Shown here one piece after another: positions 4,087-56,528 of a DNA stretch of 64,000 nt. Location: the NCBI GenBank assembly GCA_002422025.1, contig DISV01000005.1, forward strand, positions 203,518 to 267,517, in the 5' to 3' direction. The stretch is from Patescibacteria group bacterium UBA6201 (GTDB lineage: Bacteria > Patescibacteriota > Minisyncoccia > Phycocordibacterales > UBA918). Every line of letters begins with the position of its first letter. The stretch's first letter is position 1. The notes under the pieces were generated by a model. It saw only the letters and a list, made by a program, of their open reading frames with translations, was not told the DNA's origin and did no database searches. Position numbers and translations under genes: made by a program.

Positions 4087-4144
4087 AATAGTTTAGGCGA
4101 AGTGGATCTGTGAGTGTGTCTTAGTCTGATGGACTTCTGGTGGA

Positions 4145-4585
4145 CTATTGGGTTTCAGTGGTAGCTTCTGTAGTTTCTTCAGTTGGTGTTGCTTCTTCAG
4201 TAGGAGCTTCTTCTACTACTTCTTCAGCGGGTGCTTCGGCAGCAGCTTTGGCTGCTTCCTCGGCTGCTGCTTTAGCCTCTGCCTCAGCCTTTACTTTGGC
4301 CTCATCAATTATTGGTGACTTTTTCGGTAGGGCGTTGATTTTCTTCCCCTCAATTATTTTGTTTGTGACCATTAGGTTGTGAACAGTTGGAGAGACTTGT
4401 ACACCCTTACTTATCCAATCTTTAGCGCGCTCGCCGTCGATCTTAAAAAGATTAGTTTTGGCGCTGTATGAGCCCAAGGTGTCAACCTGCTTGTTACTCT
4501 TTGGACCGCTACGAGAATCAGTAACCACCACTCGGAAAGAGGGATCATTCTTGCGGCCAACTCGTTGTAAACGCATCTTTAACAT
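4145..4585 (-). CDS. rpsP: 30S ribosomal protein S16 with Ala/Glu/Thr-rich C-terminal extension
   Basis: MLKMRLQRVGRKNDPSFRVVV matches the S16 N-terminus MVKIRLARxGxKKRPFYRIVV. Start at 4585 rather than the upstream track start. Confidence 0.85.
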   Translation of the reverse strand: MLKMRLQRVGRKNDPSFRVVVTDSRSGPKSNKQVDTLGSYSAKTNLFKIDGERAKDWISKGVQVSPTVHNLMVTNKIIEGKKINALPKKSPIIDEAKVKAEAEAKAAAEEAAKAAAEAPAEEVVEEAPTEEATPTEETTEATTETQ

Positions 4586-4675
4586 ATAGTGGCACAAAGA
4601 TACCAAATTAGCGTTAATTGTCAACACTGAACTGGCCTTAAGACCAGTATTATGCTACGCTACGACCTATAACAT

Positions 4676-6658
4676 ATGTCAAACAACGACACTTTCGAAG
4701 GGGTGATTGCCGTGAGGGGTAAAGGTACAGGTTTCGTTTCTAAGCCAGATCTAGAAGAGGACATTTTGATTGAAACCAGCAATCTAGGTTTTGCTCTGGA
4801 TGGTGATTTGGTGCGTATTTCCCTACTAGAAGCGGTCGAAGGAAAACGTCAGGAAGGTAAGGTGCTAGAAGTAATAGAATCAGCTCACGAGGAATTTATT
4901 GGAGTAGTCAAAGACCGTGCTCCCGAAACTGCTGCCATCAGCAATCACTTTCTTCGTGAGCAAGCAGAAAAGAAAAGTCAGTATTATTTACTGCCAGATA
5001 ATCGGCGTATTCATGTACGTTTCTCGTTAGGGGAAGACGCAAAGGATATGGTGGGAAAAAAGGTAGCGGTGAAAATTGCTAACTGGAATGATGCAACTAT
5101 GGACCCGCAAGGAGTCGTTACTGAGGTCTTGGGACGTGCTGGTGATCATGAAACTGAGATGCAGGCAATTATCCGTGGTGGCGGGTTTTCAGAGAATTTT
5201 CCCGAGGCAGTCTCTCAGGCAGCTAAAGACCTTTACGATAGTCAGGAAAAAATATTTAAAGATGCGCTAGTAGACCCAAAGCGTAAAGATGTCCGCGGTG
5301 TCACCACCTTTACAATTGACCCACTTGACGCCAAGGATTTTGATGATGCTCTTTCATTCCAAAAGCTCCCGAACGGTAACTTCGAGATCGGTGTGCATAT
5401 TGCAGATGTGTCACATTATGTGCAGGAGGGTGAAATAATTGATATGGAAGCGCGCGAGAGAGGTACATCTATTTATCTAGTAGATAGAGTAATTCCGATG
5501 TTGCCCGAGGTGCTTTCTAATGATCTTTGTTCGTTGCGCCCTAACGAAGACCGATTGGCCTTTTCTGCTATCTTTGAAATATCTGGAGAGGCTAAAGTGG
5601 TTGGAGAATGGTACGGGCAGACAGTTATACACTCTGACCGACGTTTTAGTTATGAAGAGGCCCAAGAAATTCTCGATAAAGGCGAAGGAGACTACCTAGG
5701 TGAATTATCTAAGATGATGGAATTGTCTCGTGTCATACGCAAAGAACGTTTTAAGGAAGGAGCCATTGCTTTTGAGCAACCTGAAGTAAGGTTTGAACTT
5801 GATGAGGCCGGTAAGCCGATTCGCGCGTATACAAAACATCGCACCGAGACGATGTTGATGATTGAGGACTACATGCTTCTTGCGAACCAAAGTGTCGCAA
5901 CATATATCTATAAATTATCAAAAGATAAAAAGCGTGACGCCGCTTTCATTTATCGTATTCACGATTTACCAAATCCGGAGAAGATTGAGGATTTAGGTAT
6001 ATTTATTCGAGCACTTGGTTACGATTTTCGCACCGAAAATGGAATAGTAGATGCTAAAGATATTAATAAGCTTCTGAAAGATATTGAGGGTAAACCAGAG
6101 GAAGCCTTAATTAAGACTGCGACTATACGCTCGATGGCTAAGGCAGTTTATTCGACCAAGAACATTGGTCACTTCGGTCTCGCCTTTAAATATTACACAC
6201 ACTTCACTTCCCCAATTCGTCGTTATCCAGACTTGATGGCACATCGGTTACTCCGTCGTCATTTGGACAACTCCCCAATTGCTGGACAAGAAATTGCGCG
6301 CTTTGAAAAGCTTTCTATTCAGTCCTCCGAGCGAGAAATGGAAGCTACCCGTGCAGAGCGAGATAGTATCAAGTACAAGCAAGTAGAGTTTATGGCACCA
6401 AAGGTAGGGCAAGAATTTGATGGAATCATTTCTGGAGTGTCCGATTGGGGTATCTACGTGGAAGAAAAGGAGTCAAAGTCAGAAGGTATGGTACGGCTAT
6501 CCTCAATACGTGGTGACTATTACGAACACCTGGCGGGAGCGTACGCCATAAAGGGTCAAAAAACCGGTAATGTGTATCGACTTGGTGATACTGTCCGCTT
6601 CAAGGTTGTTAAAGCCAACTTGGAAGAGAAACAATTAGATTACGAACTAGTTAAATAA
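4676..6658 (+). CDS. rnr: ribonuclease R / RNB-family 3'-5' exoribonuclease with C-terminal S1 domain
   Basis: FTIDPLDAKDFDDALSF RNB motif, 660 aa, N-terminal cold-shock-like region and C-terminal S1-like region. Confidence 0.85.
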   Translation: MSNNDTFEGVIAVRGKGTGFVSKPDLEEDILIETSNLGFALDGDLVRISLLEAVEGKRQEGKVLEVIESAHEEFIGVVKDRAPETAAISNHFLREQAEKKSQYYLLPDNRRIHVRFSLGEDAKDMVGKKVAVKIANWNDATMDPQGVVTEVLGRAGDHETEMQAIIRGGGFSENFPEAVSQAAKDLYDSQEKIFKDALVDPKRKDVRGVTTFTIDPLDAKDFDDALSFQKLPNGNFEIGVHIADVSHYVQEGEIIDMEARERGTSIYLVDRVIPMLPEVLSNDLCSLRPNEDRLAFSAIFEISGEAKVVGEWYGQTVIHSDRRFSYEEAQEILDKGEGDYLGELSKMMELSRVIRKERFKEGAIAFEQPEVRFELDEAGKPIRAYTKHRTETMLMIEDYMLLANQSVATYIYKLSKDKKRDAAFIYRIHDLPNPEKIEDLGIFIRALGYDFRTENGIVDAKDINKLLKDIEGKPEEALIKTATIRSMAKAVYSTKNIGHFGLAFKYYTHFTSPIRRYPDLMAHRLLRRHLDNSPIAGQEIARFEKLSIQSSEREMEATRAERDSIKYKQVEFMAPKVGQEFDGIISGVSDWGIYVEEKESKSEGMVRLSSIRGDYYEHLAGAYAIKGQKTGNVYRLGDTVRFKVVKANLEEKQLDYELVK

Positions 6659-6778
6659 GAGTAAACCCGATTCCCTTTTGAAGGGGAATAAAAAACATAA
6701 CTTAAATAGGTTGTCAATCTATAGTAACCTTTTGATTCTTGATATTGTTTAGGTAGATAGGAAGGAGGTGATATAACC

Positions 6779-7042
6779 ATGTTTCACCTGAACGTGAGCC
6801 TACTCTTAAGGGACAAAGACGAATTAAAACGGTTCCTTGATCTCGTAAACAATACTCCAGGAGTTAAGAGTGGAAATAATCCACCAGACTTTTTCAGTTG
6901 GGATTCTTGCAAATTTGCTTGGGTCAAACTTGAAAGTCAATTCCTGAATGCGACAAATCTGTCAAAAGTGCTACAAAAAGACGGGTATGCCGCAGATGTT
7001 TACGATGCAGAAGAATTCGAACCAAGGGAGGTAATGTCGTGA
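6779..7042 (+). CDS. hypothetical small protein (87 aa)
   Basis: Strong SD ggaaggaggtg 8 nt upstream, followed by a terminator hairpin. No motif recognised. Confidence 0.5.
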   Translation: MFHLNVSLLLRDKDELKRFLDLVNNTPGVKSGNNPPDFFSWDSCKFAWVKLESQFLNATNLSKVLQKDGYAADVYDAEEFEPREVMS

Positions 7043-7062
7043 TTGTCATTTGGCACAGTGAC

Positions 7063-7104
7063 AAAAAGCCCGGAAAACAAATAATTATTCCGGGCTTTTT
7101 TATT
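7063..7104. terminator. bidirectional terminator aaaaagcccggaa...ttccgggctttttta
   Basis: GC stem with flanking A-run and T-run. Sits between the convergent 6779 ORF and smc. Confidence 0.7.
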
Positions 7105-9349
7105 TTGCTACTGCTAGAGCATCATCAAGTTTAACTGAAAGTAATTTAGATACACCGTCCCCTGTCATTGTTACGCCGTAAAGAATAGAAGCTCGCGACA
7201 TTGTCTCGCGATTATGTGTGATGAGTATCAACTGTGATTTTTTTGACAGAGCCTCGATCATATCTCCATAGCGTCGACTATTGGCTTCATCAAGTGCTGC
7301 ATCTGTTTCATCAAGAATCACAAATAGTGGTGGATTAACTTGACTCATAGCAAAGATAAGAGCGATTGAAGTAAGTGCTCTTTCACCACCCGATAGCATA
7401 TCTAGACCCTTCACCCTTTTGTTCGGAAGTTTGACACCGATCTCTATACCAGTTTCAGTTTTTCCTGAATCAGTTTCTTCTACGTCGTTCTCCCCATCTT
7501 CCAATTCTCCCTTGCGTCTACGAGGTTCTATTTTAACTTGGGACAGTGTCGCTTCCCCACCCCCGAACATCAAAGTAAAGAAACGATTAAACTCAGTGCT
7601 AATTTTCGTGATACCTTCACCAAATCTTTCATCAAGTTGCGCTTCAAGTTCAACAATTAATTCCTCTAATTTCGCTACCGACGTAGTGAGGTCAGCAATT
7701 TCTCTCTCTAAAAAATCATCGCGGTCTTTTACCGTTTTGTACTCAGTCTCCAGTTCTACATTCGCACCTCCTAATTCTTCTAGGCGAATCTTTAACTTTT
7801 CTAGTTCGTGACGGCGGTCACGTTGTTTGGTACGATCTTCTTTTTCAATCTCTGCCTTGGTAGCATCTACTTTATGTTCAAGATACAGTGTTGCATCACG
7901 GCCCAATAGTGCCACTGCTTCTTGTAGTTCACGTTTGAAATCTTCTCGGTCACGTTCAACTCCAGTTTTCTCAAATTCTAAACGTGAAAGTTCAGTCTCA
8001 GCTTCGCGCCTCTCGTTTACTAGTTTAAAGACTTCTCTCTCTGCTTCTCGGCTCTCACTCTGATCAGACTCGATAGAAGAACGTATTTCTTGATATGCTT
8101 TCTCGGCCTCCACTACATCTGCTTCTGCAGACTGCAATTTTTTATCTAGTAGAACCTTTTGCTTTTTGAGATCTTCGTGTTCAGTCTCCTCAGCCTTATT
8201 ACTACCTGGTGTTTCAATTGCTCGAGTTAGAAATTGTCGCAGTGAATGGACTAGGTCGCTGAGCGAACGACGTAAGTGAGATAAATCATCGCTTTTAATT
8301 GCTTGATCAACACCTTTTTCAAGTGTGGTCACAAACTTATCGATATCAGAATACGGAATATTAATGTTAGCAACATCACCCTGTTTCCGCTTATTGTCAG
8401 CGATTCTTCTTTCAATAAAGTTTATTTGACCCTCAAGGGCACCAACTTCTCTAAGTAGTGATTGGTGTGACTCTCGGGTAGCTGAAAGCATTCTCTCAGC
8501 AGACATTAACTGATCGCGCTTAGCATCATGTTTTTTTGACTCAAGAATGTCTCTAGCGATAGAAAGAGCCACTTCTATCTCCTTAATTTTATTCGAAAGA
8601 GGATCAAGTAAAGTAGTAATATGGTTTTGTGAACCGGCTAAATAAATATCTTCACGCTTAAGGTATTCAGAATAAGCATCTCTAAGTTTTTCTCTTATCT
8701 CAGCCGCTCTCTCAAGTTTCTTCACCTGCTTCTCTAAAAATCGTAGATGGGGGGCAACTTCACGGCGCAAGCCCTCTACCTTTTCTATATTCTCCTTGGT
8801 TTTTTGTAGTTTCTTTTCAGCTTCAATTTTTTTGTATTGATAAGATTTGAGTCCCAAAGCATCCTCAATCATTTCACGGCGCTCTTTATTGCTAGCAGAA
8901 AGTATTCTGTCAGCCTCGCCCTGTGAGATGATGTGGTGTCCTGAAGGGCCAATATTGGCAGCGGCCAAGACCTCTTGTACGTCTTTGAGTCGAACCACGC
9001 TGCCATTTATTAAGTATTCATTTTGTCCATCACGGTGTACAACTCTTTCTAGATTAATTTCATCAAAATCAAGTGGAAAAACTCGTTTTTGATTATCAAG
9101 CGTGATGCTAACCGACGCTCTGTTATTTCTTGATACTTGATCCGAGCCTCCCCAAATCAAATCCTCACCCTTTTTGCCACGCATTTTTGAAGGCGACTGC
9201 TCTCCTAAGACGAAGCGAAAACCTTCAGCCACATTAGACTTCCCAGAACCATTTGGTCCTACAATGCCAGTAATTGACGAAGAAAATTCCAGCTCGCTCT
9301 TCTTAGCGAATGATTTGAAACCGTTGATGGTAAGGTGTTTGAGATACAT
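7100..9349 (-). CDS. smc: SMC-family chromosome condensation ATPase, short form (749 aa)
   Basis: N-terminal Walker A GIVGPNGSGKSNVAEGFRFVLGEQS. C-terminal signature LSGGERALTSIALIFAM and Walker B LFVILDETDAALD. Coiled-coil middle, much shorter than canonical ~1180 aa. Confidence 0.8.
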   Translation of the reverse strand: MYLKHLTINGFKSFAKKSELEFSSSITGIVGPNGSGKSNVAEGFRFVLGEQSPSKMRGKKGEDLIWGGSDQVSRNNRASVSITLDNQKRVFPLDFDEINLERVVHRDGQNEYLINGSVVRLKDVQEVLAAANIGPSGHHIISQGEADRILSASNKERREMIEDALGLKSYQYKKIEAEKKLQKTKENIEKVEGLRREVAPHLRFLEKQVKKLERAAEIREKLRDAYSEYLKREDIYLAGSQNHITTLLDPLSNKIKEIEVALSIARDILESKKHDAKRDQLMSAERMLSATRESHQSLLREVGALEGQINFIERRIADNKRKQGDVANINIPYSDIDKFVTTLEKGVDQAIKSDDLSHLRRSLSDLVHSLRQFLTRAIETPGSNKAEETEHEDLKKQKVLLDKKLQSAEADVVEAEKAYQEIRSSIESDQSESREAEREVFKLVNERREAETELSRLEFEKTGVERDREDFKRELQEAVALLGRDATLYLEHKVDATKAEIEKEDRTKQRDRRHELEKLKIRLEELGGANVELETEYKTVKDRDDFLEREIADLTTSVAKLEELIVELEAQLDERFGEGITKISTEFNRFFTLMFGGGEATLSQVKIEPRRRKGELEDGENDVEETDSGKTETGIEIGVKLPNKRVKGLDMLSGGERALTSIALIFAMSQVNPPLFVILDETDAALDEANSRRYGDMIEALSKKSQLILITHNRETMSRASILYGVTMTGDGVSKLLSVKLDDALAVAK

Positions 9350-44771: not shown

Positions 44772-46169
44772 TTAAAACTTCTCAATTAACTTAATTAAGA
44801 GTCGTACCGGTTCACCAGTTGAACCTCTAGCCAACTTATCATGAGCGGCCGCGTCCATTCGTGGAGCGATATCAAGGTGAGCCCAGGGTACACTCTTCGG
44901 TGCAAAAAATGACAAAAAGGCACCCCCTTCAATCGCTCCCCCAAACTTTGAGAAATTTGGATGAATGTTTATTACATCGGCACGGGTCTTGGTGAGCGGC
45001 GCTTTGTGTTCATCCCAGAGTGGTAATGGCCACACATAATCTCCACTTTCTTCACCAAAAATCTTCAAAGTATCTGCCAACTTATCGTCAGTACCCATAA
45101 CGGCACTGGCTACCTGACCTAGTGCCACCAGTGAGGCACCAGTTAAAGTTGCTACATCAACAATAACTCTCGGTTCATAGCGCTTCGCATAAGATAGAGC
45201 GTCAGCCAAGATTAACCGGCCTTCAGCGTCGGTGTGAAGTACTTCAATCGTCTTACCAGAATGAGAGTTGATTATGTCTCCCGCGCGCATCGACTTTTCT
45301 GATACAGCATTTTCAGCAATTGGAATTAGTCCGATTACATTTTTCTTAAGTCCCAGCTTGGCAGCAGCTAGTATCGATAGTGCTACTGAAGAGCCACCAG
45401 ACATGTCCATATGCATTTCGTGCATTGACCCTGAAGGCTTCATATTAAGTCCACCTGTGTCGTACGTGACCCCTTTTCCAATTAATACGATTGGTTTTTC
45501 CCCGCTCTTTCCACCCTTATATTCCATAATGACAAAACGCGGCAGATCATCAGCTCCTTTCCCTACTGCCCATAGCGCGTGTAGACCCTCCTTTCTAATT
45601 CGCTTGTCGTCAAAGACCGTTACGTTAACTTTTGTGCCTTTTGCTAACTTTTGTATAGTTTCGCCAAACACTTTTGGGGTCATATCGTCTCCAGGTGTAT
45701 TGGCTATATCACGAGCTGTATTAACATACTCACCCACAGTTAAGCCGCGAGCTATTATCTTTTTATCCGACAAACCGCACAACAAAACTTCTTTAAGTAG
45801 AGTTTTATTTTCTGGCTTTGATTTGTACTTTAAGAACTCGTAGCCAGCAATGATTAGATTTTCCACCAAAGTTGAAATCACCCAATCCTGTCCGAAGGTA
45901 GTGAGTTTTGCAAATTCTTTTGCACTCGGTACATCAAGTGCTAGCAGTTCTATCTTATGACTTTGGGCAGTTCTAGCTATGTCTCGTACTATAGCTATAA
46001 ACTTTCTCGGAGTAACATCAGCTGGTTTACCTATCTTGAAACGAAGTTCAGTAGCGCCATCTTTAGTTTCAACAAAACGATGACCCTGCTTGTCTCCAAG
46101 TAAGACTAGTCGAGTGTATTTTTTTGGTGCGTCTTGTACTTTTTTGTTACTTGTCGTTACCTTCATCAT
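44772..46169 (-). CDS. pepA: leucyl aminopeptidase (M17)
   Basis: NTPGDDMTP and LHTDAEGRLILADALSYA M17 signatures. Confidence 0.85.
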   Translation of the reverse strand: MMKVTTSNKKVQDAPKKYTRLVLLGDKQGHRFVETKDGATELRFKIGKPADVTPRKFIAIVRDIARTAQSHKIELLALDVPSAKEFAKLTTFGQDWVISTLVENLIIAGYEFLKYKSKPENKTLLKEVLLCGLSDKKIIARGLTVGEYVNTARDIANTPGDDMTPKVFGETIQKLAKGTKVNVTVFDDKRIRKEGLHALWAVGKGADDLPRFVIMEYKGGKSGEKPIVLIGKGVTYDTGGLNMKPSGSMHEMHMDMSGGSSVALSILAAAKLGLKKNVIGLIPIAENAVSEKSMRAGDIINSHSGKTIEVLHTDAEGRLILADALSYAKRYEPRVIVDVATLTGASLVALGQVASAVMGTDDKLADTLKIFGEESGDYVWPLPLWDEHKAPLTKTRADVINIHPNFSKFGGAIEGGAFLSFFAPKSVPWAHLDIAPRMDAAAHDKLARGSTGEPVRLLIKLIEKF

Positions 46170-47505
46170 CAGTTTTGCTTAGCAGAGTGTCGATGCGATT
46201 CATGTCACGTGGGAACAGTGTTGCTTCTTTAACATTTTGAACTCCACAGAATTTTGCGGTGAGGCGCTCAAGTCCCATTCCCCAACCACCATGTGGAGGG
46301 ATTCCGTAATTAAAGGCTTGTAGGTAAAAGCTGAAGTTTTCAGGATTTAAACCTTTGGCAATAGCCTTTTGCTTTAGCATTTCAACATCATGTACACGTT
46401 GACCGCCTGTAGTAATTTCAACACCTCTGAATAAGAGGTCAAAACTCTTGGTAAAGCCTGGATCACTCTCGTCTTCGTAAGTATAGAAGGGTCGCTTACT
46501 CACCGGATAGTGAGTGATGAAAATAAAATCACTTCCTAACTCGTCGTGAGCATATTCACATAACCAGCGTTCATCTTCAGGCTCTAGGTCAGGCTCTGAA
46601 GTTTTATCAGTCCCAGTGCGCTCCTTGATAAGTGCTTGAGCTTCCCGCAACTTCATATGTGGGAAAATATCACCCTCAGGTAATTTTGGCAATTCGATAT
46701 TGAGTGTAGCTAAATCATCGACATTTCTGGAACCTAATGCTTCGCTAATATATTTCATTAAACCAGTTTCTACACGCATTATGTCAGTATGATCTTTGAT
46801 GAATCCCATTTCGGCATCAAGTGAAGTGTACTCACTTAAGTGTCTTGTGGTAGAACTCTTCTCAGCACGAAAGGCTGTAGCAAAAGTAAAAACACGCTCA
46901 AATACCCCCACCATTATCTGCTTGTAGAGTTGTGGAGAAGTGGCCAAGAAGGCATCCTTGTTGTAAAAATATCCAACCTTAAATACTTCAGCGCCGCCTT
47001 CGGCATCTCCTCCTACTAGCTTGGGAGCTTGAAACTCAGTAAAACCCTCTTGGCGCATATATTCACCGTAAGATCGAGTGATTGTGGCCTGTACGTTAAA
47101 TATTGCCCGTTCCCTTTTTCGTTTTAAGGTAATTGGTCTATTGTCTAAAAGCGTATCGATATTGAGTTCGCTGTCCAAATCAAAAGGTAAGGCTTTAGCT
47201 TGATTCAAAATTTCGATACTAGTGATTTCCAACTCAATGTCACCGTTCGGAACCTTATCATTAACCATCTTTTCAGGACGCTTGTTGACAATCCCCTTAA
47301 CAAAAAGACTACTTTCTGGTGAGGCGTTTTTGGCTACCTCCAAAACTTCCGGCTTACCAAATACTACCGCCTGTACAACACCAGTGCGATCACGCAAATC
47401 AAAGAAGGCCATTTTTCCCTGGTCGCGACGCACATCAACCATGGCACCGATAAGTACTTCACTACCAATTTTATCTTTTAGTTCTTTAATTAAAGTTCTT
47501 TCCAT
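46147..47505 (-). CDS. aspS: aspartyl-tRNA synthetase, archaeal/eukaryotic type (class IIb, probably non-discriminating)
   Basis: 452 aa with N-terminal OB fold, FRAE..STTRHLSEYTSLDAEM, GGWGMGLERL, terminal LFPRD. AsnRS cannot be fully excluded. Confidence 0.65.
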   Translation of the reverse strand: MERTLIKELKDKIGSEVLIGAMVDVRRDQGKMAFFDLRDRTGVVQAVVFGKPEVLEVAKNASPESSLFVKGIVNKRPEKMVNDKVPNGDIELEITSIEILNQAKALPFDLDSELNIDTLLDNRPITLKRKRERAIFNVQATITRSYGEYMRQEGFTEFQAPKLVGGDAEGGAEVFKVGYFYNKDAFLATSPQLYKQIMVGVFERVFTFATAFRAEKSSTTRHLSEYTSLDAEMGFIKDHTDIMRVETGLMKYISEALGSRNVDDLATLNIELPKLPEGDIFPHMKLREAQALIKERTGTDKTSEPDLEPEDERWLCEYAHDELGSDFIFITHYPVSKRPFYTYEDESDPGFTKSFDLLFRGVEITTGGQRVHDVEMLKQKAIAKGLNPENFSFYLQAFNYGIPPHGGWGMGLERLTAKFCGVQNVKEATLFPRDMNRIDTLLSKTDDEGNDK

Positions 47506-47507
47506 AA

Positions 47508-48446
47508 TTATAAAGTTACACCGATTTTCTTGTGGATTTCGATCATTTTAGCACTCGCTCGCTCGCGCGCCTTTTCTGCGCCGTCCCTTAGAACCGATTT
47601 TACCTGCTCATCGGTTATGTTGGCTCGCTTCTCACGCATTGGTGCTATCAGTGCCTCAATATCATTGAGTAAAGCCTCCTTGAGATTCTTATAGCTACCT
47701 TTGTTCTCTTCATAAAGTTTTTCTAGCTCTGCTTCTGAACGAAATAGTTTGTGAATTGAGTATACATTCCGAGGGCGCTCACCTGTAGAGTCCGTTACAA
47801 TACTCATCACTGCCTTTTGTACCTCTTCCTTACTACCAAATAGTGGAATGGTGTTCTTGTAACTTTTGGACATTTTGGCGCCGTCCGTACCTGGAATCAC
47901 TCCGACTCCCTCAAGAATCATTTCTTGAGGAGCAGTGAAGGTGTCTCCGTAAGCGAGATTAAATTTATTAGCAGCCTCTCTAGTGTATTCAACGTGTTGT
48001 TTTTGGTCTTGCCCCACCGGCACCACTTCGGTGTCATACAAAAGAATGTCAGCCGCCATCAACATTGGGTAATTGAATAGGCCGGCGTTTGCTTCTAACC
48101 CTTTAGCCACCTTGTCCTTATAGGCATGTGCTAATTCTAGAAATGGAACGGTGACCAAGCACTCAAATATCCAAGCCAGCTCTGTATGTTCTGGTACATC
48201 AGATTGTTTAAAGATTATTGCCTCATTAGGGTCAACCCCCGCTGCCAAGTAGTCTCTAACCACATCCTTAGTGTTTTGTCGCAGTAAAGAAGGCTCCTTA
48301 ATGGTAGTTAAGGCATGATAGTCCACAACCATTAAATGGCTGTCGTAATCCTTATATAAGTCAACAAAAGGCTTCAGTGCCCCAAAATAATTGCCTAAGT
48401 GGAGTGCACCAGATGGTTGCAATCCGGTCAAGAGTCGCTTTTTCAT
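47508..48446 (-). CDS. trpS: tryptophanyl-tRNA synthetase
   Basis: LTGLQPSGALHLGNYFGA HIGH region and KMSKS. Confidence 0.85.
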   Translation of the reverse strand: MKKRLLTGLQPSGALHLGNYFGALKPFVDLYKDYDSHLMVVDYHALTTIKEPSLLRQNTKDVVRDYLAAGVDPNEAIIFKQSDVPEHTELAWIFECLVTVPFLELAHAYKDKVAKGLEANAGLFNYPMLMAADILLYDTEVVPVGQDQKQHVEYTREAANKFNLAYGDTFTAPQEMILEGVGVIPGTDGAKMSKSYKNTIPLFGSKEEVQKAVMSIVTDSTGERPRNVYSIHKLFRSEAELEKLYEENKGSYKNLKEALLNDIEALIAPMREKRANITDEQVKSVLRDGAEKARERASAKMIEIHKKIGVTL

Positions 48447-48491: not shown

Positions 48492-48618
48492 TAGATTGTT
48501 TAAAAATGGATGCAGATGTGCTAGTTGGAAGAATTTTAGTGACGGAGCCTTAGATAAACTAAGGTGATAGAGCTAAAATTCTGAAACTAGTGCAGACGCG
48601 CCATTTTTAAACAATCTA
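48492..48618 (-). repeat. Copy A of the 128-bp repeated structured element. Its outer arms are a perfect 18-bp inverted repeat (tagattgtttaaaaatgg / ccatttttaaacaatcta). It sits between the HK stop codon and trpS.
   Basis: The arms are seen directly. ~85% identical to copy B. Confidence 0.6.
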
Positions 48619-50325
48619 AGCCCACTTTGCTTCAATGCCGTTGAGTGGCATCACAAAGGTAAAAGTGGAACCTTTATTTTCTCCTGGTGAAGTTACGGTA
48701 ATATCGCCCCCCATCCCCCTAGCCATCGTGCGAGCTATGTAGAGACCGAGTCCTGTACCGGTCACGTTTATTTCATTAGCGTTCTTGGCACGCTCAAATT
48801 TCTGGAAAAGAGTTTTTAGGTTCTCTGGCGAGATACCGATACCATGGTCAGTCACGTCAACATAGGCTGTCTTTGTTTGTAAATCTTTTCTAACAACCAC
48901 TGTTATAGTGCCTGTCTCCTTTGTGTACTTAAGTGCGTTATCTATAAGGTTTTGTACTATTTGTCTAGACTTACCAATATCAAGTTTTACTGCAGCACTG
49001 CCTTCAATGTTAGGCTTAAATTCAAGAGTAATACCTTTTTTAGCCGCTACTGGTAATAGTTCAACCACCACTTCCTCTGCTAATTTTTTAAGGTCGTAAT
49101 CGGCAATCTCGTATTTCATATTACCGGCTTCGATACGTGACACATTGAGGTAATCTTCAATTGAGAGTGCCATATGACGTGAAGCGTCTGATACGTGTGT
49201 CAGAACTTCTTTAACCTTTGGACTGACTTCGCCGTAAGATCCTTCAATAATCATCGAAATGTATCCACGTACGGAAGTCAGAGGACTTCTTAGCTGATGT
49301 GATGCTATCGATACGAATTCAGACTTCATTTTATCTAGCCGTTCTAGACGCATGTTAACTCCAGCTAGTTCGGTGGCCAGTCTCTGTGCTAGTTGTTTTT
49401 GTTGAATCTCGTTCTTAGTACTCCTAACTAATAAGGTACCGAGTATTAATACCAGGACAAAAGTAATTACTGATACTACTCGAACCGTGTCCAGACTTTG
49501 AAGAAAAATAATACTAAAGGTAAGTATTGCCAAGGCTACTAGAAGTAGTTGTGAAGTGACTATGTTCGTTTTAAAAGCATTAAATTGAGTAATCAAGGCA
49601 GCAATGATGGCAACCATAACTGGCATACCAAATATTCCATATTGTCCTATTGTCCAATTCTCGAAGAAGCTTCCGGCTATATTACCGAATGAGAAGATGC
49701 CGAGAAAAAGTATGATAGCGATGGTAGTAAATATTGAAAGATTACGCTTTTTCCCTTCGTCAGCAGTGGTTAATAGATAGATAACCAGCCTAGCCACAAT
49801 TGCCAAAGCAATAATTAGTTGAACAAAATAACTATAGAACACCAATGGCCCCTCTGTAACCTCCCTCCAACAATTTGTTAAGTTGAAGTTCTCAATCATC
49901 AAAGAAGTCTGTGTGAATAAAATTATTGGCAATATAAGTACCACAAAAGGTATTAGCCAACTTAAAGGAAGAGGTTTTTCATATAGTACATTGTGAGAAA
50001 ACGCAAAGGCAGTTAAATAAATGATTGGCTCCAAAAGAATAAGGACAGACCAAACAAACATAATTGTCTGAGGTGAATCATTGGCCCATAGTATTAAGTC
50101 ACCGAAAGTCCATATTGAAAATAAAAGTACAGTCAAAAAGAACAGTTGATTCTGCTTACGTTTTCTGTCATTGAAATAAATTATGAACGCTAACGGTAAG
50201 GCCAATAGTACCGGTAAGATGTGTGAGTAATAGATCAGCGGGTCAAAGACGTTTTCAGAAATAATCAACCAAGACGTAGGTGCCCACTCACAAAATGTTG
50301 CATAGTCTACTAGTGGAGGAACCAT
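48616..50325 (-). CDS. sensor histidine kinase with large N-terminal polytopic membrane domain
   Basis: H-box SHQLRSPLTSVRGY. HATPase N/G boxes NLIDNALKYT and GTGLGLYIA. ~7 TM segments. No response regulator adjacent. Confidence 0.8.
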   Translation of the reverse strand: MVPPLVDYATFCEWAPTSWLIISENVFDPLIYYSHILPVLLALPLAFIIYFNDRKRKQNQLFFLTVLLFSIWTFGDLILWANDSPQTIMFVWSVLILLEPIIYLTAFAFSHNVLYEKPLPLSWLIPFVVLILPIILFTQTSLMIENFNLTNCWREVTEGPLVFYSYFVQLIIALAIVARLVIYLLTTADEGKKRNLSIFTTIAIILFLGIFSFGNIAGSFFENWTIGQYGIFGMPVMVAIIAALITQFNAFKTNIVTSQLLLVALAILTFSIIFLQSLDTVRVVSVITFVLVLILGTLLVRSTKNEIQQKQLAQRLATELAGVNMRLERLDKMKSEFVSIASHQLRSPLTSVRGYISMIIEGSYGEVSPKVKEVLTHVSDASRHMALSIEDYLNVSRIEAGNMKYEIADYDLKKLAEEVVVELLPVAAKKGITLEFKPNIEGSAAVKLDIGKSRQIVQNLIDNALKYTKETGTITVVVRKDLQTKTAYVDVTDHGIGISPENLKTLFQKFERAKNANEINVTGTGLGLYIARTMARGMGGDITVTSPGENKGSTFTFVMPLNGIEAKWA

Positions 50326-50335
50326 AGCTTTATTA

Positions 50336-50893
50336 TTACACAGCGTTGGCGTACTCCCTTTGTAAAAATTGTGGAATGTATGGCATATAACTCAAGTATG
50401 TTTGTCTTGGCAAAGAGTGAATAGATCGAATTATCTTTCTACAATTTTTTGCGCCACATTTACATACACCGGGTAGTCTCCAAAACCTGTCTCCTTCAGT
50501 GATACTGTAATCAATTGTTATATGCTCATTCTCCTTAATGGGTTTTAAGGCGACAATATTCACTGAACCTTTTATGGCACAGTTTGGGTCACAGGAGTGA
50601 TTAAGATATAAGAGCGGGTTATCATCCTTTGGATCTATCCAAAGTTCCCTATCTAATCCTATAGCGTTCGGAAGTTCTACCGAATCTTCGGGGCCACTGA
50701 TTTTTAAAGGGACTTTCTTTCCTTTAATTATAAAAATAGTTTCCCCCTTGTTAATATTCTTTTTAGCAAATAGTCCATACCCCAGACCGACCCGGACATC
50801 TTCTGCTGATGCGGCGTAGACTTTTTTATTTTTAATTTTAGAGATCTTCTTCGGTAAATTCTGAGAGGGGTTTCGTTTCATAAGAAAAGTCAT
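50336..50893 (-). CDS. SET-domain protein (putative protein lysine methyltransferase)
   Basis: N-terminal GLGYGLFAKKNINKGETI, NHSCDPNC, HITIDYS and post-SET CKCGAKNC. Confidence 0.75.
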   Translation of the reverse strand: MTFLMKRNPSQNLPKKISKIKNKKVYAASAEDVRVGLGYGLFAKKNINKGETIFIIKGKKVPLKISGPEDSVELPNAIGLDRELWIDPKDDNPLLYLNHSCDPNCAIKGSVNIVALKPIKENEHITIDYSITEGDRFWRLPGVCKCGAKNCRKIIRSIHSLPRQTYLSYMPYIPQFLQREYANAV

Positions 50894-51055
50894 CTTCTAT
50901 GATGTAGCGATTGTAAGTTACTGCCACAGACAAAAGAATACAAAAAACTAGTATGATGATTAAAATTTGATTGATAGTGGTAGACATAATCAACGTAGTC
51001 ATCTTAGCATCAAATAGTTTTGCTTCAGCTGCTTTTCAACAGCATAATCCTACTG

Positions 51056-51370
51056 TTACATTTCACTAGTTATTACAGCACCCACTGCTAAGGCGAGTGA
51101 AACAAGTTGCCAATTGGTTGGCACTTCACCATACCGAAACCAGCCAAGAGCATAAAGACCAATGAGTGTCATCGCTGCATATATAACACCGACTTGGGCT
51201 AGAGACTTGCCTTGCATGATGTATGCCCACAAAGGTGCGGTAAGGGCGTATAAGCACGCCCCCGCTAGCACCATATATGATATGGTCTGACCGCTCTCAG
51301 CGGCTTGCTTAAGTAGGTCATCACCCCACAGTAATAATGAAACGGCCAAGATTACTGCAACCCAAATCAT
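51056..51370 (-). CDS. small multidrug resistance (SMR/EmrE-SugE family) transporter
   Basis: 104 aa with 4 TM helices and a conserved Glu in TM1 (WGDDLL). Confidence 0.65.
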   Translation of the reverse strand: MIWVAVILAVSLLLWGDDLLKQAAESGQTISYMVLAGACLYALTAPLWAYIMQGKSLAQVGVIYAAMTLIGLYALGWFRYGEVPTNWQLVSLALAVGAVITSEM

Positions 51371-51380
51371 AGGAATCCTC

Positions 51381-51887
51381 TTATATTATAAACATTACCG
51401 CTAGCGGTAACACAAACCAAAGGAAAGCCAGCTCCTCTGTCAGTAAGGATTCTGGAATTGGTGTACCAATGTCAATGATTTCTCCGACCGGCAAATAGTG
51501 GAGAAAAAGCGTCATCACTAATATCATAGCGGCGAAAGCAAAAAGAATTTTTTTGCCTAATGATTCGAATGTGCCCTCTAGGTATTCTCGTGGCATCAGA
51601 CGGGAAAAGAGTATGGTTCCAAGAACAGATAGCGTCACAAAGATTGCTACCGATATTATCGCTTCACTCTTATCGGAACCAGCTTGTTCTATCAAGCTGT
51701 TAGTAAAAGGAAAGAAGGAATGCAAAAACAAACCAAAATACATGCCCATCATTACATTGATGAGACTTTGCCGTCCCTTAAGCATTGCATATCCGAGCGC
51801 AATAGCAAAACTGGCTAACAAGAGTATCCATCCTTGAATGAATGAAAGGACATCAGCAAATTCCATATGAAAATTGTAGCACCACAC
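51381..51887 (-). CDS. hypothetical integral membrane protein
   Basis: 4-5 hydrophobic segments. No motif. Confidence 0.4.
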   Translation of the reverse strand: MWCYNFHMEFADVLSFIQGWILLLASFAIALGYAMLKGRQSLINVMMGMYFGLFLHSFFPFTNSLIEQAGSDKSEAIISVAIFVTLSVLGTILFSRLMPREYLEGTFESLGKKILFAFAAMILVMTLFLHYLPVGEIIDIGTPIPESLLTEELAFLWFVLPLAVMFII

Positions 51888-51985: not shown

Positions 51986-53059
51986 CTATATCCCCTCTCC
52001 TTTTAATTCCTCAATCAATTTTTTGGCATTTCGGGAAAGCTTGGTCGGCAATTCAATATCAATCTTCACCAAGAAGTCACCGCGGCGATTGCCGACCGGT
52101 ACCCCTTTTTCCTTAATTCGGAGCACTTCACCGTGTTGAACACTTGCTGGGACACTGATAGTTACAGGACCATCAAGTGTCTCAATTTTATACTCTGCGC
52201 CGAGTAGCGCGTCTGTTAGTTTAACTGGGAGTGTTTGATAAAGGTTATTACCCTCACGCTTTATATGTTTATCTGGTTGAACATGAATCTTAATGTACAG
52301 GTCTCCAGGTATAGCACCTTGGAGTGCCTCACCTTGTCCCACCATTCTGATTACCTCACCGTCACTGATACCAGCAGGCACTTTAATTTTTATCTCAACC
52401 GGTGATCTCTTAACCCCAGTTCCAGCACAACTAGCACATTTTTCTTTTGGCACTTCACCTCGACCCTTACATTCTGCACACTCCCTCACAGTGGTGAAGC
52501 TACCAAGTACACTTTGTCTAGACTCTCTAACTTTCCCTTGCCCATTACATACTTTGCAAGTGGTCATTTCAGTACCAACCTTAGCACCAGTACCTTCACA
52601 GGTCTCGCAAACATTGTGTTTATTTAAGACCACTGTTCGTTCAGTACCAAAGACCGCTTCACGGAAAGGTAGCTCAATGTCTATAGATACATCGTTGCCA
52701 CGCTTTTGTCGTCTGGCGCCGAAACCACCCCCAAAGACATCTCCAAAGTTTTCGAAAATGTCTCCAATATCAAATTCCATTCCATTGAATCCGCCGGCTT
52801 GTGACCAGTTAAATCCTCCAAAGCCTTGGTTTCCTCCACCTCCGCCGCCACCGTTAAAGGCTCGGCCGTAGGTATCATATTCAGCCCGCTTCTTGTCGTC
52901 AGCAAGTACTGAATATGCCTCACTTACCTCTTTAAACTTAGCTTCATCCCCTGTCTTTTTGTCGGGATGATACTGAGCAGCTAGCTTACGGAAAGCCTTC
53001 TTGATCTCATCTTTTGTGGCCTTTTTTTCAATGCCAAGAATTTGATAGTAGTCTTTCAT
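51986..53059 (-). CDS. dnaJ: chaperone DnaJ
   Basis: J domain with HPD, Gly-rich linker, four CxxCxGxG repeats. Confidence 0.9.
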   Translation of the reverse strand: MKDYYQILGIEKKATKDEIKKAFRKLAAQYHPDKKTGDEAKFKEVSEAYSVLADDKKRAEYDTYGRAFNGGGGGGGNQGFGGFNWSQAGGFNGMEFDIGDIFENFGDVFGGGFGARRQKRGNDVSIDIELPFREAVFGTERTVVLNKHNVCETCEGTGAKVGTEMTTCKVCNGQGKVRESRQSVLGSFTTVRECAECKGRGEVPKEKCASCAGTGVKRSPVEIKIKVPAGISDGEVIRMVGQGEALQGAIPGDLYIKIHVQPDKHIKREGNNLYQTLPVKLTDALLGAEYKIETLDGPVTISVPASVQHGEVLRIKEKGVPVGNRRGDFLVKIDIELPTKLSRNAKKLIEELKGEGI

Positions 53060-53126: not shown

Positions 53127-55007
53127 CTACTCCTTTTTGTCAGTATTGTCCCCAGCTGGTTCCTCGCTCTGTTCCCCAGCTGGTTTTTCTGGTTGTGCTT
53201 CAGAGCTTTGCTGTTGCAAGAGTTCACCAATCTTAGATAGCTCTGCTGATAGTTCTTGAGTTTTTGTTTCTATATCAGCTACCGCATCTTTATCCTTAAC
53301 CTCTTGCACTTCCTTTATTTTTGCTTCAATAGAAGTCTTCAAGTCAGCCGGAACTTTCTCTACATAGTCACGAAGTGACTTTTCGGCAGTGTACACAGTC
53401 TGGTCGGCTAGGTTTCGAGCTTCAACCAACTTCTTCTTGCTCTCGTCATCAGCCTGGTGGGCCTCGGCGTCCTTTTTCATTCTTTCGATATCCTCAGGTG
53501 TGAGGCCAGAGCTAGCTTCGATACGGATAGACTGCTCCTTTCCAGTTGCCTTGTCTTTTGCAGTTACTTTTAATACACCGTTTGAGTCAACATCGAAGGC
53601 CACTTCGATTTGTGGTACTCCTCTCGGCGCTGGTGGAATTCCGTCTAGAATAAAGCGACCGAGCGACTTGTTGTCGCTTGCTAATGCTCGCTCTCCTTGC
53701 ACGATGTGAATCTCAGTTGTGGTCTGATTATCAGCTGCAGTAGAGAAGATCTGTGACTTCTGAGTTGGAATATGGGAGTTCTTCTCAATTAACTTTGTGT
53801 TTACTCCACCCATAGTTTCAATACCGAGGGATAGTGGAATAACGTCCACCAAAGTAATGTCTTGAACATCTCCTTGGAAGATACCAGCCTGAATAGCCGC
53901 ACCGAGCGCTACCACTTCGTCAGGGTTAATAGATTTGTTTGGCTCTTTGCCAAAGTATTCCTTTACCTTATCAACAATCTTTGGCATACGAGTCTGTCCA
54001 CCAACCATGATGATTTCATCAATCTCTTCTTTCTTAAATGGTGAGGCTTCAAGGGCACGCTTAGTGATTTCCATCGCCCGGTCAATGAACTCATTGGCGA
54101 TTTCATCAAGCTTAGCGCGTGTGAGCTTCAAAAGCATGTGCTTAGGCCCTTCCGAACCTGAAGTGATGAACGGAATATTAATTTCAGTCTCTAGTGAAGA
54201 CGATAGCTCAAGTTTTGCCTTTTCAGCTGCCTCGTCGAGACGTTGCAAAGCGAGTTTGTCAGAGCTGAGGTCAATTCCCTCACTCTTCTTAAACTCAGCA
54301 ATCAACCAGCGAACAATTTCCTGATCAATGTCACGTCCACCCATATGAGCATCTCCGTCAGTAGACTTCACTTCTACTACGTCGTCACCAACCTCCAGTA
54401 CTGTGACATCGAAAGTACCACCTCCGAAGTCAAAAACCACTAGCTTTTCATCCTTCTTCTTATTAAATCCGTAGGCAAGTGCGGCAGCGGTTGGCTCATT
54501 GATGATACGCTTCACCTCAAGTCCAGCAATCTTTCCAGCATCTTGAGTAGCCTTTCTTTGTGCGTCATTAAAGTAGGCTGGAACAGTAATAACTGCTTCA
54601 GTTACCTTTTCACCAAGTCTAGCTTCAGCGTCGGCCTTTAGCTTACCTAGAATCATCGCTGAAACCTCTTCTGGACGATAGTCCTTCTCAGCCATTTTGA
54701 CCTGCACCCCACCATCAGGCCCCTCCTTTACTTCATACGGCACGATGGCTTTGTCCTTCTGGACAGCTTCCTCTTTGAAAGCGTGTCCCATGAAGCGCTT
54801 GATACCATAGATAGTATTAAACGGGTTTGTGACAGCCTGACGCTTAGCAATCTGACCCACCAAACGCTCATTGGTTTTAGATATAGCAACAATTGATGGA
54901 GTGGTACGTCCACCTTCTGCGTTTTCAATTATTTTTGGCTCACCTGCCTCAATAAAGGCTACGGCTGAGTTAGTTGTTCCAAGGTCAATACCAATTATTT
55001 TAGCCAT
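53127..55007 (-). CDS. dnaK: chaperone DnaK (Hsp70)
   Basis: [21 protein letters not shown], acidic C-terminus. Confidence 0.95.
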
Positions 55008-55053: not shown

Positions 55054-55653
55054 TTATTCCACAGTAACTTTGGCGTGGCGTATTATCTTATCTCCCATTT
55101 TATATCCTTTCAGTACCACATCCTTCACTACGCTTCCGTTACCGTTATCTGCCAAAGCCTCGTGTAGATTTGGATCAAACTCATCTCCAGTTTTTCCAAA
55201 CCCTACTGCACCATAATTCCTCAATATGGATGAAAGTTGCAGGTAAATGCCTTGAAGTCCCTTTTTAAGGTTCTCAGGCGCTGTTTCAAAAGCAGGATCT
55301 TGCAAGGCCATATCGAAACTATCACAAAGCGGAAGAATATCCTCAATGAGTCCAGCAGTCATTCTGGCACGGTCATTAACTTTCTCTTCATCAAGCCTAC
55401 GACGCGCGTTCAAGAAGTCCGCCTTGGCTCTTTGAAGCTCTTCAAGCGCTGACATTTTATCTTTCTCTGCTAATTTCAGTTTCTCTCGGAGTCGTTTCAG
55501 TTTGTCAGCACTGTTTTCTTCCTCAATCTCTAATGATTCGTCTTCGATATCATCTTCGTCCTCCATTTCAAGCTCCAAATCTTCATTTTCATTCCGTAAC
55601 ATCACCATACATTTAACATTATAACTGGAGTGAGAGTGGTTGTCAAAATGCAC
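55054..55653 (-). CDS. grpE: nucleotide exchange factor GrpE
   Basis: Acidic N-terminus, coiled coil, C-terminal DEFDPNLHEAL...KGYKMGDKIIRHAKV. Its start overlaps the upstream gene stop (TAATG). Confidence 0.8.
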   Translation of the reverse strand: MHFDNHSHSSYNVKCMVMLRNENEDLELEMEDEDDIEDESLEIEEENSADKLKRLREKLKLAEKDKMSALEELQRAKADFLNARRRLDEEKVNDRARMTAGLIEDILPLCDSFDMALQDPAFETAPENLKKGLQGIYLQLSSILRNYGAVGFGKTGDEFDPNLHEALADNGNGSVVKDVVLKGYKMGDKIIRHAKVTVE

Positions 55654-56528
55654 TACTTAGTCACATACTTGATGCCTGACTCAGTCCATTTTTTTAGAAC
55701 GTAATCTAAATACCCGTCTATTAAAACAGGTGGACACATTTCTGAAAGTTCCAAGCCGGCGCTTGTAAATAAACAGTTGCCGATAGGTAGCCTGAATTCG
55801 TTTACATTCTTATTTGCTTTCGACAACTTCAGTTCAAATTTGTTACCTAAGTAACTTACATCACATTGCTCTTCTGTAGAGACATTCTTGAAGCCAAAAG
55901 CACCATCAAATTTTATTAAACCAATTGAATCTAAGTGTAACAAAGTTCCGAAGTCCACACCATTATCGTTGTACAATTTTTCCTTGGAATCAAACACTAA
56001 TGGTGCCGGTCCATTAACGTCCCAAATGAAGTTACAGAGTGATGAAAACATGTCTGCATCACTTTTGTCCAAAGTTGCTAGTAGTTGAATGGTGCGCTTA
56101 CTATACGAACCTGGATAATTCGCTTCTCCAGCCAACACTCGGGACCATAGCTCTTGCATCTGGTCATTAGAAATAAGTCTCGCTTTATCGAAAAATGCAA
56201 CGAGCCAGTCTTTCTCAATTTTTTCAGGGCTTGCTTCCTGAGTAAGTAACGGCAGTGCCTTGATTGTTACAGATTCAATATTCTTTTGTCTTTCTGACTC
56301 TTCGGTAATCATTCTAGATAGTGCTCTTTGTTCAAGTTCTGTAGCTTCTATTGTAGCTTCTGTTTGTGCACGAGTACGCACTTTTGTGGCGTATGCTTCT
56401 GCATCAGCAATTCTTTTGATCTGACCAGGCCGAAATACTCCTCCCACAGCATCAGAAACACGATTCACTAAAGTAGTTGCTGTGTCTGCAAACTTGCCGA
56501 GGTTTATTAATGATATTTCGTTCTTCAT
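55653..56528 (-). CDS. hypothetical protein (291 aa) in the position usually held by hrcA
   Basis: No HrcA motifs. Translationally coupled to grpE. Confidence 0.45.
   Translation of the reverse strand: MKNEISLINLGKFADTATTLVNRVSDAVGGVFRPGQIKRIADAEAYATKVRTRAQTEATIEATELEQRALSRMITEESERQKNIESVTIKALPLLTQEASPEKIEKDWLVAFFDKARLISNDQMQELWSRVLAGEANYPGSYSKRTIQLLATLDKSDADMFSSLCNFIWDVNGPAPLVFDSKEKLYNDNGVDFGTLLHLDSIGLIKFDGAFGFKNVSTEEQCDVSYLGNKFELKLSKANKNVNEFRLPIGNCLFTSAGLELSEMCPPVLIDGYLDYVLKKWTESGIKYVTK

Follow-up and report, generated by a model that had tools for sequence, protein, structure and literature searches.

A conserved membrane cassette that joins a SET-domain methyltransferase to an orphan sensor histidine kinase in Paceibacteria-type Patescibacteria

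We analysed a stretch of 64,000 nucleotides of the contig DISV01000005.1 from Patescibacteria group bacterium UBA6201 (in the following the window; positions refer to it). On its minus strand a gene for a SET-domain methyltransferase of 185 amino acids (aa; 50336-50893) is situated directly upstream of a gene for a sensor histidine kinase of 569 aa (48616-50325). The two genes belong to a conserved four-part membrane cassette of Paceibacteria-type Patescibacteria, which consists of a transporter-like protein, the SET protein, a single-pass microprotein and the kinase. Concerning its function, we propose, with somewhat less than even confidence, that the cassette as a whole senses and handles cationic amines. 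That the SET protein is an N-methyltransferase of a polyamine or of another free cationic amine, and thus the first SET-fold enzyme of such a kind, is possible but on balance doubtful. All functional statements made here rest on gene neighbourhood, gene fusions and structure prediction.

The conservation of the arrangement was assessed with two sets of related loci (named by L numbers in the following). The first set comprises 80 genome loci anchored on the SET protein and retrieved with an alignment of 24 SET sequences. The second set comprises 80 metagenome loci anchored on the kinase and retrieved with its membrane sensor domain; 72 of these contain enough upstream sequence. The SET gene is found directly upstream of the kinase gene in 64 of these 72 loci and, when both sets are pooled and de-duplicated to 93 distinct kinase loci, upstream in 73 of 83. 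In the SET-anchored loci from Patescibacteria (SET 37-50% identical) the kinase orthologue lies directly downstream on the same strand, whereas the SET loci from other phyla are without a kinase orthologue. The initial annotation of this DNA had treated SET and kinase as a pair, and in relatives this pairing holds in both directions. The pair is kept despite differing flanks, for example in L003, L004, L006, L011, L020 and L043, and also through rearrangements within the cassette (L158, L167 and the clade of the window). As it persists with unrelated flanks and internal rearrangements, the linkage exceeds the inherited synteny of the region between dnaK and trpS.

These observations bear on the possibility that the SET protein has a housekeeping substrate, namely one of the abundant proteins of the cytoplasm (for instance nucleoid-associated proteins, ribosomal proteins or elongation factors), and is merely co-expressed with the kinase. 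Such a role would fit the frequent location of the cassette within a syntenic block of the order GrpE-DnaK-DnaJ-MEM...TrpRS-AspRS, and also the small genomes and compact operons of the candidate phyla radiation (CPR). Moreover, methylation of chromatin proteins in vitro has been reported for small SET proteins of archaea and chlamydiae. However, the adjacency of SET and kinase survives wholly different flanks as well as rearrangements, and the kinase family is almost never found without SET, as the above counts indicate. In addition, the tethering of SET to the membrane by fusion to a seven-helix protein, described below, would be odd for an enzyme acting on the nucleoid or on ribosomes. We regard a housekeeping substrate as quite unlikely.

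By all sequence and fold criteria the SET protein is a genuine and apparently intact SET/post-SET methyltransferase, for which methyl transfer is predicted. The Pfam model SET (PF00856) scores 55 bits against a cutoff of 22.4 and is covered in full (model positions 1-105). The motifs NHSCDPNC, HITIDYS (with D128 and Y129) and CKCGAKNC, which the initial annotation had given for its SET assignment, are present, as is GYGLFA, and the assignment survives the Pfam, profile, AlphaFold2 (AF2) and Foldseek tests. The NHSC motif (N98-C101; 50591-50602, minus strand) is the signature of the pseudoknot that binds S-adenosylmethionine (SAM) in SET domains. The post-SET motif CxCx4C (C144, C146 and C151; 50441-50464, minus strand) is invariant in two alignments and aligns to the sequence CNCGAKKCRK in the post-SET region of MLL1. 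In an alignment of 51 SET homologues the residues N98, H99, S100, C101, D128, Y129, W138, C144, C146, C151 and R152 are invariant. The four-cysteine zinc site of the post-SET region, which is made up of C101 from the NHSC motif and of C144, C146 and C151, is thus invariant as a whole.

In the comparison with known SET families the family profile matched the SET domain of MLL1/KMT2A best (E 2.6e-25) and also matched the bacterial enzyme BurB (E 1.1e-15). The AF2 model has a mean predicted local distance difference test score (pLDDT) of 91.8 and a predicted template modelling score (pTM) of 0.86. A Foldseek search with this model returned BurB first (E 3.2e-9) and, close behind, NSD1, MLL1 and ASH1L, all with a probability of 1.0. 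Since BurB S-methylates free methionine, the SET fold alone does not fix a protein lysine as substrate.

The N-terminal extension of the window protein is basic and disordered. Translation could alternatively start at the second methionine (50881), giving a protein of 181 aa, and the database twin P0001 begins there. The C-terminal helical tail is conserved; this family-specific tail of about 35 residues forms two short helices in the AF2 model, which is confident there too, and carries the motif LPxxxYxxYxPYIPxYF. A database search yielded 165 SET homologues from DPANN archaea and from Patescibacteria (among them Parcubacteria/Paceibacterota and Kaiserbacteria); nearly all of these proteins stand alone and are 150-190 aa long. 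At least 571 species representatives match the profile of this subfamily, so that the initial description of bacterial SET proteins as uncommon does not apply to it.

Some cassettes contain two SET domains, as tandem genes, as a single SET-SET chain or with a member of a second SET subfamily that lacks the post-SET cysteines. The single chains (P0006, P0007, L024 9506-10483 and L037 2249-3184) are 311-325 aa long and contain two complete SET/post-SET domains. The second subfamily is encoded in L099 (4480-4917, minus strand), L140 (355-894, minus strand), L125 (3906-4445, minus strand), L122 (5419-5826) and L026 (10447-10845), either beside the pair of microprotein and kinase or in between SET and microprotein. 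The proteins of L099 and L140, in which the post-SET cysteines are absent, pass the Pfam SET model with 49-57 bits; those of L125, L122 and L026 were found by phmmer.

The third part of the cassette is a microprotein. In most relatives SET and kinase are separated by a spacer of about 140-170 nucleotides (nt), and this spacer is filled by a small open reading frame (ORF). The encoded family of about 50 aa has a basic N-terminus, one transmembrane (TM) helix and an acidic tail with about six aspartate or glutamate residues within the final 20 residues. With a hidden Markov model (HMM) it was found in 102 loci, where its stop codon generally lies 1-10 nt ahead of the kinase ATG. The 69 distinct sequences share a serine in the TM helix (93% conserved) and the motif YY[RK]Y[IV][IV]xxD[FY]..FT.EE. 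Ten representatives of 42-58 aa are contained in a library of 1.8 billion proteins, and in L163 and L167 the microprotein was independently predicted by gene callers. The microprotein gene abuts the kinase gene in 74 of 91 distinct loci and is retained beside it in the nine loci without SET.

In the window the corresponding unannotated ORF (50838-51002, minus strand; MTTLIMSTTINQILIIILVFCILLSVAVTYNRYIIEDDFSYETKPLSEFTEEDL) is located upstream of SET and overlaps its 5' end by 44-56 nt. Its 54-aa translation, with one TM helix followed by an acidic tail, is about 80% identical to the copy in L002. The same order is found in L001, L002 and L083, which together with the window form one clade. In this clade SET abuts the kinase because the microprotein gene has shifted upstream of SET; the spacer between SET and kinase is 6 nt long in L001, L002 and L083 and 10 nt long in the window. 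In the window the SET stop codon TAA (50336-50338) is followed by the spacer TAATAAAGCT (50326-50335) and by the kinase ATG at 50325. ORFs and spacer are thus exactly as the initial annotation had described them. The translational coupling that it had deduced from this distance, however, does not represent the general case. A SET gene that directly abuts the kinase gene is confined to the clade of the window, where it goes back to a rearrangement, and the gene usually coupled to the kinase is that of the microprotein. Likewise, the initial annotation had placed a membrane protein immediately upstream of SET and had missed the conserved 54-aa ORF in between.

When the spacer was inspected no obvious Shine-Dalgarno sequence was seen ahead of the kinase ATG. 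Read on the minus strand (50326-50338), the SET stop codon and two more in-frame stops (TAA TAA TAA) are followed by AGCT and the kinase ATG. Searches with Rfam in the window and in four relatives gave tRNAs only, with no riboswitch in the spacer between SET and kinase, and scans for promoters and terminators gave results at chance level.

Two functions of the microprotein were considered and not favoured. Its N-terminal sequence MDKKSK could resemble a histone tail and serve as SET substrate, but the lysines are only about 50% conserved and are missing from the window copy. The microprotein could also be the precursor of an agr-like pheromone that the seven-helix protein would process and export; a protease signature was not detected. 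A stable kinase subunit appears more likely, given the genuine TM helix with its near-invariant serine, the conservation of juxtamembrane residues and a possible fusion in L143. In that locus (1123-2892) a microprotein-like segment seems to be fused in frame to the kinase N-terminus, with a weak match (16.8 bits, E 0.009) that is the only such case. Three proteins of 127-144 aa, encoded in L115 (4659-5042), L027 (6562-6996) and L093 (375-782), share the N-terminus MDKKSK, the TM helix and a YYRY anchor and extend into cysteine-rich or acidic extracytoplasmic domains. These genomes may therefore encode a broader single-pass family that includes the microprotein.

Judged from its domains, the kinase is of the standard HisKA type, and its polytopic sensor is an uncharacterised one. 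Pfam assigns HisKA with 48.3 bits (residues 333-401; 49123-49329, minus strand) and HATPase_c with 95.3 bits (residues 454-562; 48640-48966, minus strand). The H-box SHQLRSPL with the phospho-acceptor His343 (49297-49299), which is nearly invariant in the kinase alignment, and the N, G1, F and G2 boxes (DNALKYT, DHGIGI, FQKFER and GTGLGL) are present. The Pfam model HisKA_7TM (PF16927) gives 24.9 bits, under its cutoff of 28.6; several homologues carry precomputed PF16927 hits. NCBIfam returned only sub-threshold matches to PnpS, PhoR and WalK, which cover residues 326-560 approximately.

The membrane sensor domain comprises residues 1-305 (49411-50325, minus strand). Instead of the approximately seven TM helices initially assumed, about nine are predicted by AF2 (pLDDT 75.9) and hydropathy analysis agrees. 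The AF2 model places helices at residues 29-52, 57-81, 85-115, 121-136, 160-186, 192-221, 224-247 and 255-275, and a last TM helix starting at residue 279 continues directly into the DHp helix that bears His343. A short beta-hairpin after the fourth TM helix (residues 144-158) is predicted to be extracytoplasmic. The sensor is highly conserved; its invariant residues include C12, W14, Y32-S34, W80, W92, C152, E158, G159, N215, Q228 and P235, and H35 is nearly invariant. As the number of helices is odd and the DHp domain is cytoplasmic, the N-terminus should face outward. Both invariant cysteines, C12 and C152, would therefore be extracytoplasmic, and from this topology a disulfide between them is possible. 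A search of the PDB with the sensor profile gave no sequence match.

No response regulator had been noticed near the kinase, and this also holds for the complete window. All stop-to-stop ORFs of at least 28 aa were searched with phmmer (five seeds, E<=10) and with a purpose-built receiver HMM (E<=1), and no receiver domain was detected anywhere in the 64 kb. Among 111 related loci only three contain a receiver ORF within 6-10 kb, and the other 108 do not. The orphan status of the kinase is consequently a trait of the family. A stand-alone receiver adjoins the cassette kinase only in L003 (12371-12847, minus strand) and in L115 (7831-8223, plus strand); these two cases hint that the kinase has a single-domain partner that is encoded elsewhere.

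The fourth part of the cassette, the transporter-like protein, comes from either of two families. In the window it is a 104-aa protein with four TM helices (51056-51370, minus strand) resembling EamA and SMR proteins of the DMT superfamily. Its initial classification as an SMR transporter was not confirmed: there is no match to SMR (PF00893), and EamA is reached only below threshold (22.9 bits, cutoff 28.2). The second membrane protein that had been reported upstream was found as described and is treated below as MEM168. Among the homologues of the 104-aa protein, the one in L072 passes EamA (PF00892) with 30.7 bits and the one in L045 has a weak match to Multi_Drug_Res (15.8 bits). Most relatives contain a different protein at this position, which we refer to as 7TM. 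It is about 190-230 aa long with seven predicted TM helices, has no Pfam match and does not occur in the window. Upstream of SET, 59 informative loci contain 7TM in 46 cases, the EamA-like protein in eight, neither in five and both in none. In a few loci a full EamA transporter with ten TM helices takes the place of either protein.

The 7TM family has an internal repeat of three TM helices (hhalign probability 56-66%), and its sole sensible profile match in the PDB is the SemiSWEET structure 4rng with a non-significant E of 0.19. Homology of 7TM to the kinase sensor or to the EamA-like protein was considered and rejected, the hhalign probability being 0.3% in each case.

In six genomes of Sphingomonadales/Alphaproteobacteria, 7TM and SET are fused in ORFs of 387-530 aa, with 7TM at the N-terminal and SET at the C-terminal end (L036 9344-10582, L051 9341-10597, L064 9329-10492 and L082 164-1390; also L042 and L047). 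The neighbourhoods of the Sphingomonadales fusions consist of high-GC DNA in which the majority of long ORFs are without a Pfam match; about 2.7 kb upstream of the fusion in L051 a JmjC_2 protein is encoded. An EamA-like gene adjoins SET in Verrucomicrobiales and in one genome of Thermodesulfobacteriota. The most widespread associate of the SET family, and also the oldest, is thus the membrane partner and not the kinase.

The partners and the distribution of the SET family are also relevant for the question of whether the SET protein is a secreted effector by which an episymbiont methylates proteins of its host, in the manner of chlamydial NUE and Legionella RomA, nucleomodulins that act on histones by methylation. 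Most discussions of bacterial SET proteins follow this line (PMC3980110, PMC2904774). Patescibacteria are often attached to a host, and the basic N-terminal extension of the window protein could be seen as fitting. However, the likely hosts of Paceibacteria are prokaryotes without histone H3/H4 tails, and no secretion-system genes are found nearby. Furthermore, free-living Sphingomonadales and Verrucomicrobia encode close homologues, some of them fused to 7TM, and what is conserved beside SET is a transporter-like protein together with a sensor kinase. We consider a secreted effector very improbable, and a role as an effector on host histones is unlikely. The context thus argues in the same direction as the doubt that the initial annotation had cast on the host-histone framing.

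The gene context which led us to cationic amines is that of polyamine metabolism. In L092 the order is 7TM, homospermidine synthase, microprotein and kinase, with the synthase in the usual SET slot. The 477-aa synthase (4306-5739) was identified by its match to PDB 4plp (E 3e-175); NCBIfam gave no match. In L153 a homospermidine synthase gene directly precedes a cassette of 7TM, SET, microprotein and kinase (polyamine gene region 3210-4556). In L155 genes for AdoMetDC, a DUF2617 protein and spermidine synthase (1658-3515) are followed by two 7TM genes, SET, microprotein and kinase. L005 encodes an Orn/Arg decarboxylase, a deoxyhypusine-synthase-like protein and an agmatinase, the latter 83 nt from the 7TM gene (4721-9265). 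In L145 a 7TM gene is followed by one for a pyruvoyl arginine decarboxylase (PvlArgDC, 2118-2630), and L105 and L130 are further examples. The cases differ in genes and arrangements. A polyamine gene lies within 150 nt of the cassette in about five to six of about 56 distinct loci with sufficient flank, while well under one such locus would be expected if a genome has about 1000 genes, only a handful of them for polyamines. The estimate is a rough one that followed the discovery of the pattern during browsing, and it ignores the relatedness of the loci.

Outside the Patescibacteria, SET genes are found in a polyamine cluster of Verrucomicrobiales. It encodes PotD/PotF-like binding proteins, a dCache-HAMP-PAS hybrid kinase, the EamA-like protein, one or more SET proteins, SpeA, a protein similar to deoxyhypusine synthase (DHS) or homospermidine synthase, and agmatine deiminase. 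SpeA, the biosynthetic arginine decarboxylase, scores 734 bits against a cutoff of 369. The cluster occurs in L045 (4576-14762) and L065 (5286-14590) and also in L050, L057, L063 and L071, with the PotD/F-like protein single or doubled and one or two SET genes.

From this context we propose the following model. The kinase and the acidic-tailed microprotein would form a surface sensor for a polycationic amine, polyamines being the best candidate, in which the microprotein, with its acidic tail predicted to face outward, would act as co-receptor of the kinase. The 7TM or EamA-like protein would transport the amine or a derivative of it, possibly methylated. The cytoplasmic SET protein, located at the membrane beside the transporter, would N-methylate a primary amine. 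Its favoured substrate would be a polyamine, whose aminobutyl or aminopropyl end closely mimics the side chain of lysine; the alternative is a lysine on a protein of the cassette. The kinase would signal to a receiver encoded elsewhere, possibly a single-domain protein. The initial annotation had suggested a signalling or envelope-stress module that involves lysine methylation. The context points to polyamines or cationic amines and not to a generic envelope stress.

The alternative substrate, a lysine on a cassette protein, would mean that methylation by SET tunes the output of the kinase, as a lysine-based counterpart of CheR. Candidate targets would be the linker, the DHp or the CA domain of the kinase, a loop of the transporter-like protein or the N-terminus of the microprotein. 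With few exceptions the characterised SET enzymes methylate lysines of proteins, and the profile of the SET family is nearest to the MLL-type SET/post-SET proteins. The operon link between SET and kinase is tight and two-way, with only 10 nt between the genes in the window, and a 7TM-SET fusion would place the enzyme at the membrane next to the kinase. On the other hand, the SET family is far wider than the kinase and occurs without it in DPANN archaea, Sphingomonadales, Sphingobacteriaceae and other lineages. The upstream partner of SET comes from either of two unrelated membrane families, which is hard to square with a specific protein substrate, and homospermidine synthase can replace SET in the cassette. 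No standout invariant cytoplasmic lysine is present in the kinase alignment, and the N-terminal lysines of the microprotein are poorly conserved and absent from the window copy. We consider this tuning of the kinase unlikely. A small-molecule substrate is favoured over a cassette protein because two unrelated transporter-like families interchange, because a polyamine synthase can replace SET and because BurB provides a precedent.

Besides the limits of the enrichment estimate given above, several points weigh against the proposed handling of cationic amines. The window contains no polyamine gene in its 64 kb, and about 90% of the cassette loci have no adjacent polyamine gene. The SET proteins of the Verrucomicrobiales cluster are only 32-36% identical to the window protein and may act differently. 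We infer a transporter function of 7TM from its topology, its internal repeat and the non-significant match to SemiSWEET. In sequence the SET family is closer to the MLL-type protein lysine methyltransferases than to BurB, as the E values given above indicate, and the prior for SET enzymes being protein lysine methyltransferases is strong. A literature search found no SET enzyme that methylates polyamines.

The genes that flank the cassette in the window are all encoded on the minus strand. The upstream gene run comprises GrpE (55054-55653), DnaK (53127-55007) and DnaJ (51986-53059), and a 291-aa ORF (55653-56528) lies directly upstream of grpE with a one-base overlap with the grpE start. DnaJ precedes MEM168, a polytopic membrane protein of 168 aa (51381-51887), which is followed by the cassette. 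MEM168 has no family match in Pfam and NCBIfam, and NCBIfam gave no equivalog for any protein of the cassette region of the window. In at least 20 related loci a homologue of MEM168 (the 'mem' family) likewise separates dnaJ from the cassette; MEM168 may be part of either the cassette or the chaperone operon. Downstream of the kinase follow TrpRS (47508-48446) and a class II aminoacyl-tRNA synthetase of the Asp/Asn type (46147-47505).

Full-text searches of the literature turned up no report, for Patescibacteria or for other organisms, in which SET is linked to a kinase or to polyamines; the cassette is assembled from known kinds of parts. The genomes of Patescibacteria are tiny and encode few signalling systems, and for metabolites these bacteria rely on hosts or communities. 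A four-gene cassette that is conserved across this group, with an intact SET methyltransferase at its centre, is therefore likely to be important to them. If the substrate of SET were a protein of the cassette, the first two-component pathway controlled by lysine methylation would have been found. If it acted on polyamines, SET-fold chemistry would be extended beyond BurB and a sensing and processing of polycations in these cells would be revealed; the cassette would then represent a complete polycation module at the surface of ultra-small CPR bacteria. Whichever the substrate, three families are defined: an unannotated microprotein that is a partner of a kinase, a 7TM family without Pfam match that is sometimes fused to SET, and an orphan polytopic kinase. 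The results also correct the assumption that prokaryotic SET proteins are mainly effectors on host histones.

Among known systems, CheR/CheB also couples a SAM-dependent methyltransferase to a histidine-kinase pathway; CheR, an enzyme of the class I Rossmann fold, has glutamates of methyl-accepting chemotaxis proteins (MCPs) as its substrates. The analogy is functional only, as the cassette contains no MCP, CheA or CheW. With the MLL/KMT2-type enzymes (PDB 2w5y, 7u5v) the SET protein shares the GxG and NHSC motifs, the catalytic tyrosine of the DY motif, the CxCx4C zinc cluster and the predicted fold. In contrast to these, the cassette SET is a stand-alone prokaryotic protein of 160-185 aa in a context of membrane proteins, has no partners of the WDR5/RbBP5/ASH2L type and carries in addition the conserved tail of about 35 aa after the post-SET region.

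BurB of Burkholderia thailandensis (PDB 9l4t, 9l4v) is likewise a bacterial single-domain SET protein (172 aa compared with 185 aa) and the top Foldseek match of the window protein. It S-methylates free methionine and thereby gives a precedent for a small bacterial SET protein that acts on a small molecule within a metabolic gene cluster (PMC12542666). BurB differs in sequence (about 23% identity, with a weaker profile match than MLL), no bur-type genes are found near the window SET, and BurB works in the dimethylsulfoniopropionate (DMSP)/malleicyprol pathway, for which neither a kinase nor a microprotein nor a transporter-like protein has been reported as its partner. NUE of Chlamydia and RomA/LegAS4 of Legionella are also bacterial SET-domain methyltransferases, but they are secreted by intracellular pathogens of eukaryotes, whereas the SET family of the cassette has a context of membrane signalling and transport and includes homologues in free-living bacteria and DPANN archaea. 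The window protein is thus closely related neither to BurB nor to these nucleomodulin effectors.

The kinase resembles the HisKA_7TM family (PF16927; PMC5847659) in having a polytopic N-terminal sensor that is fused directly to the DHp and CA domains, but it scores below the cutoff of this family and is predicted to have about nine helices instead of seven. The closest parallel to the microprotein is offered by MgrB (47 aa) and SafA, small membrane-protein regulators of PhoQ (PMC8404706, PMC10576120), which are likewise single-pass proteins of about 50 aa with a functional tie to a sensor kinase of the membrane. An acidic surface allows PhoQ to sense cations and cationic peptides; in the cassette the tail of the microprotein would provide the acidic surface. 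There is no sequence similarity to MgrB or SafA, and MgrB is a regulon member encoded elsewhere, whereas the cassette microprotein is encoded 1-10 nt directly upstream of its kinase and is conserved across a phylum-level group. By analogy, the microprotein may work on the cassette kinase as MgrB and SafA do on PhoQ.

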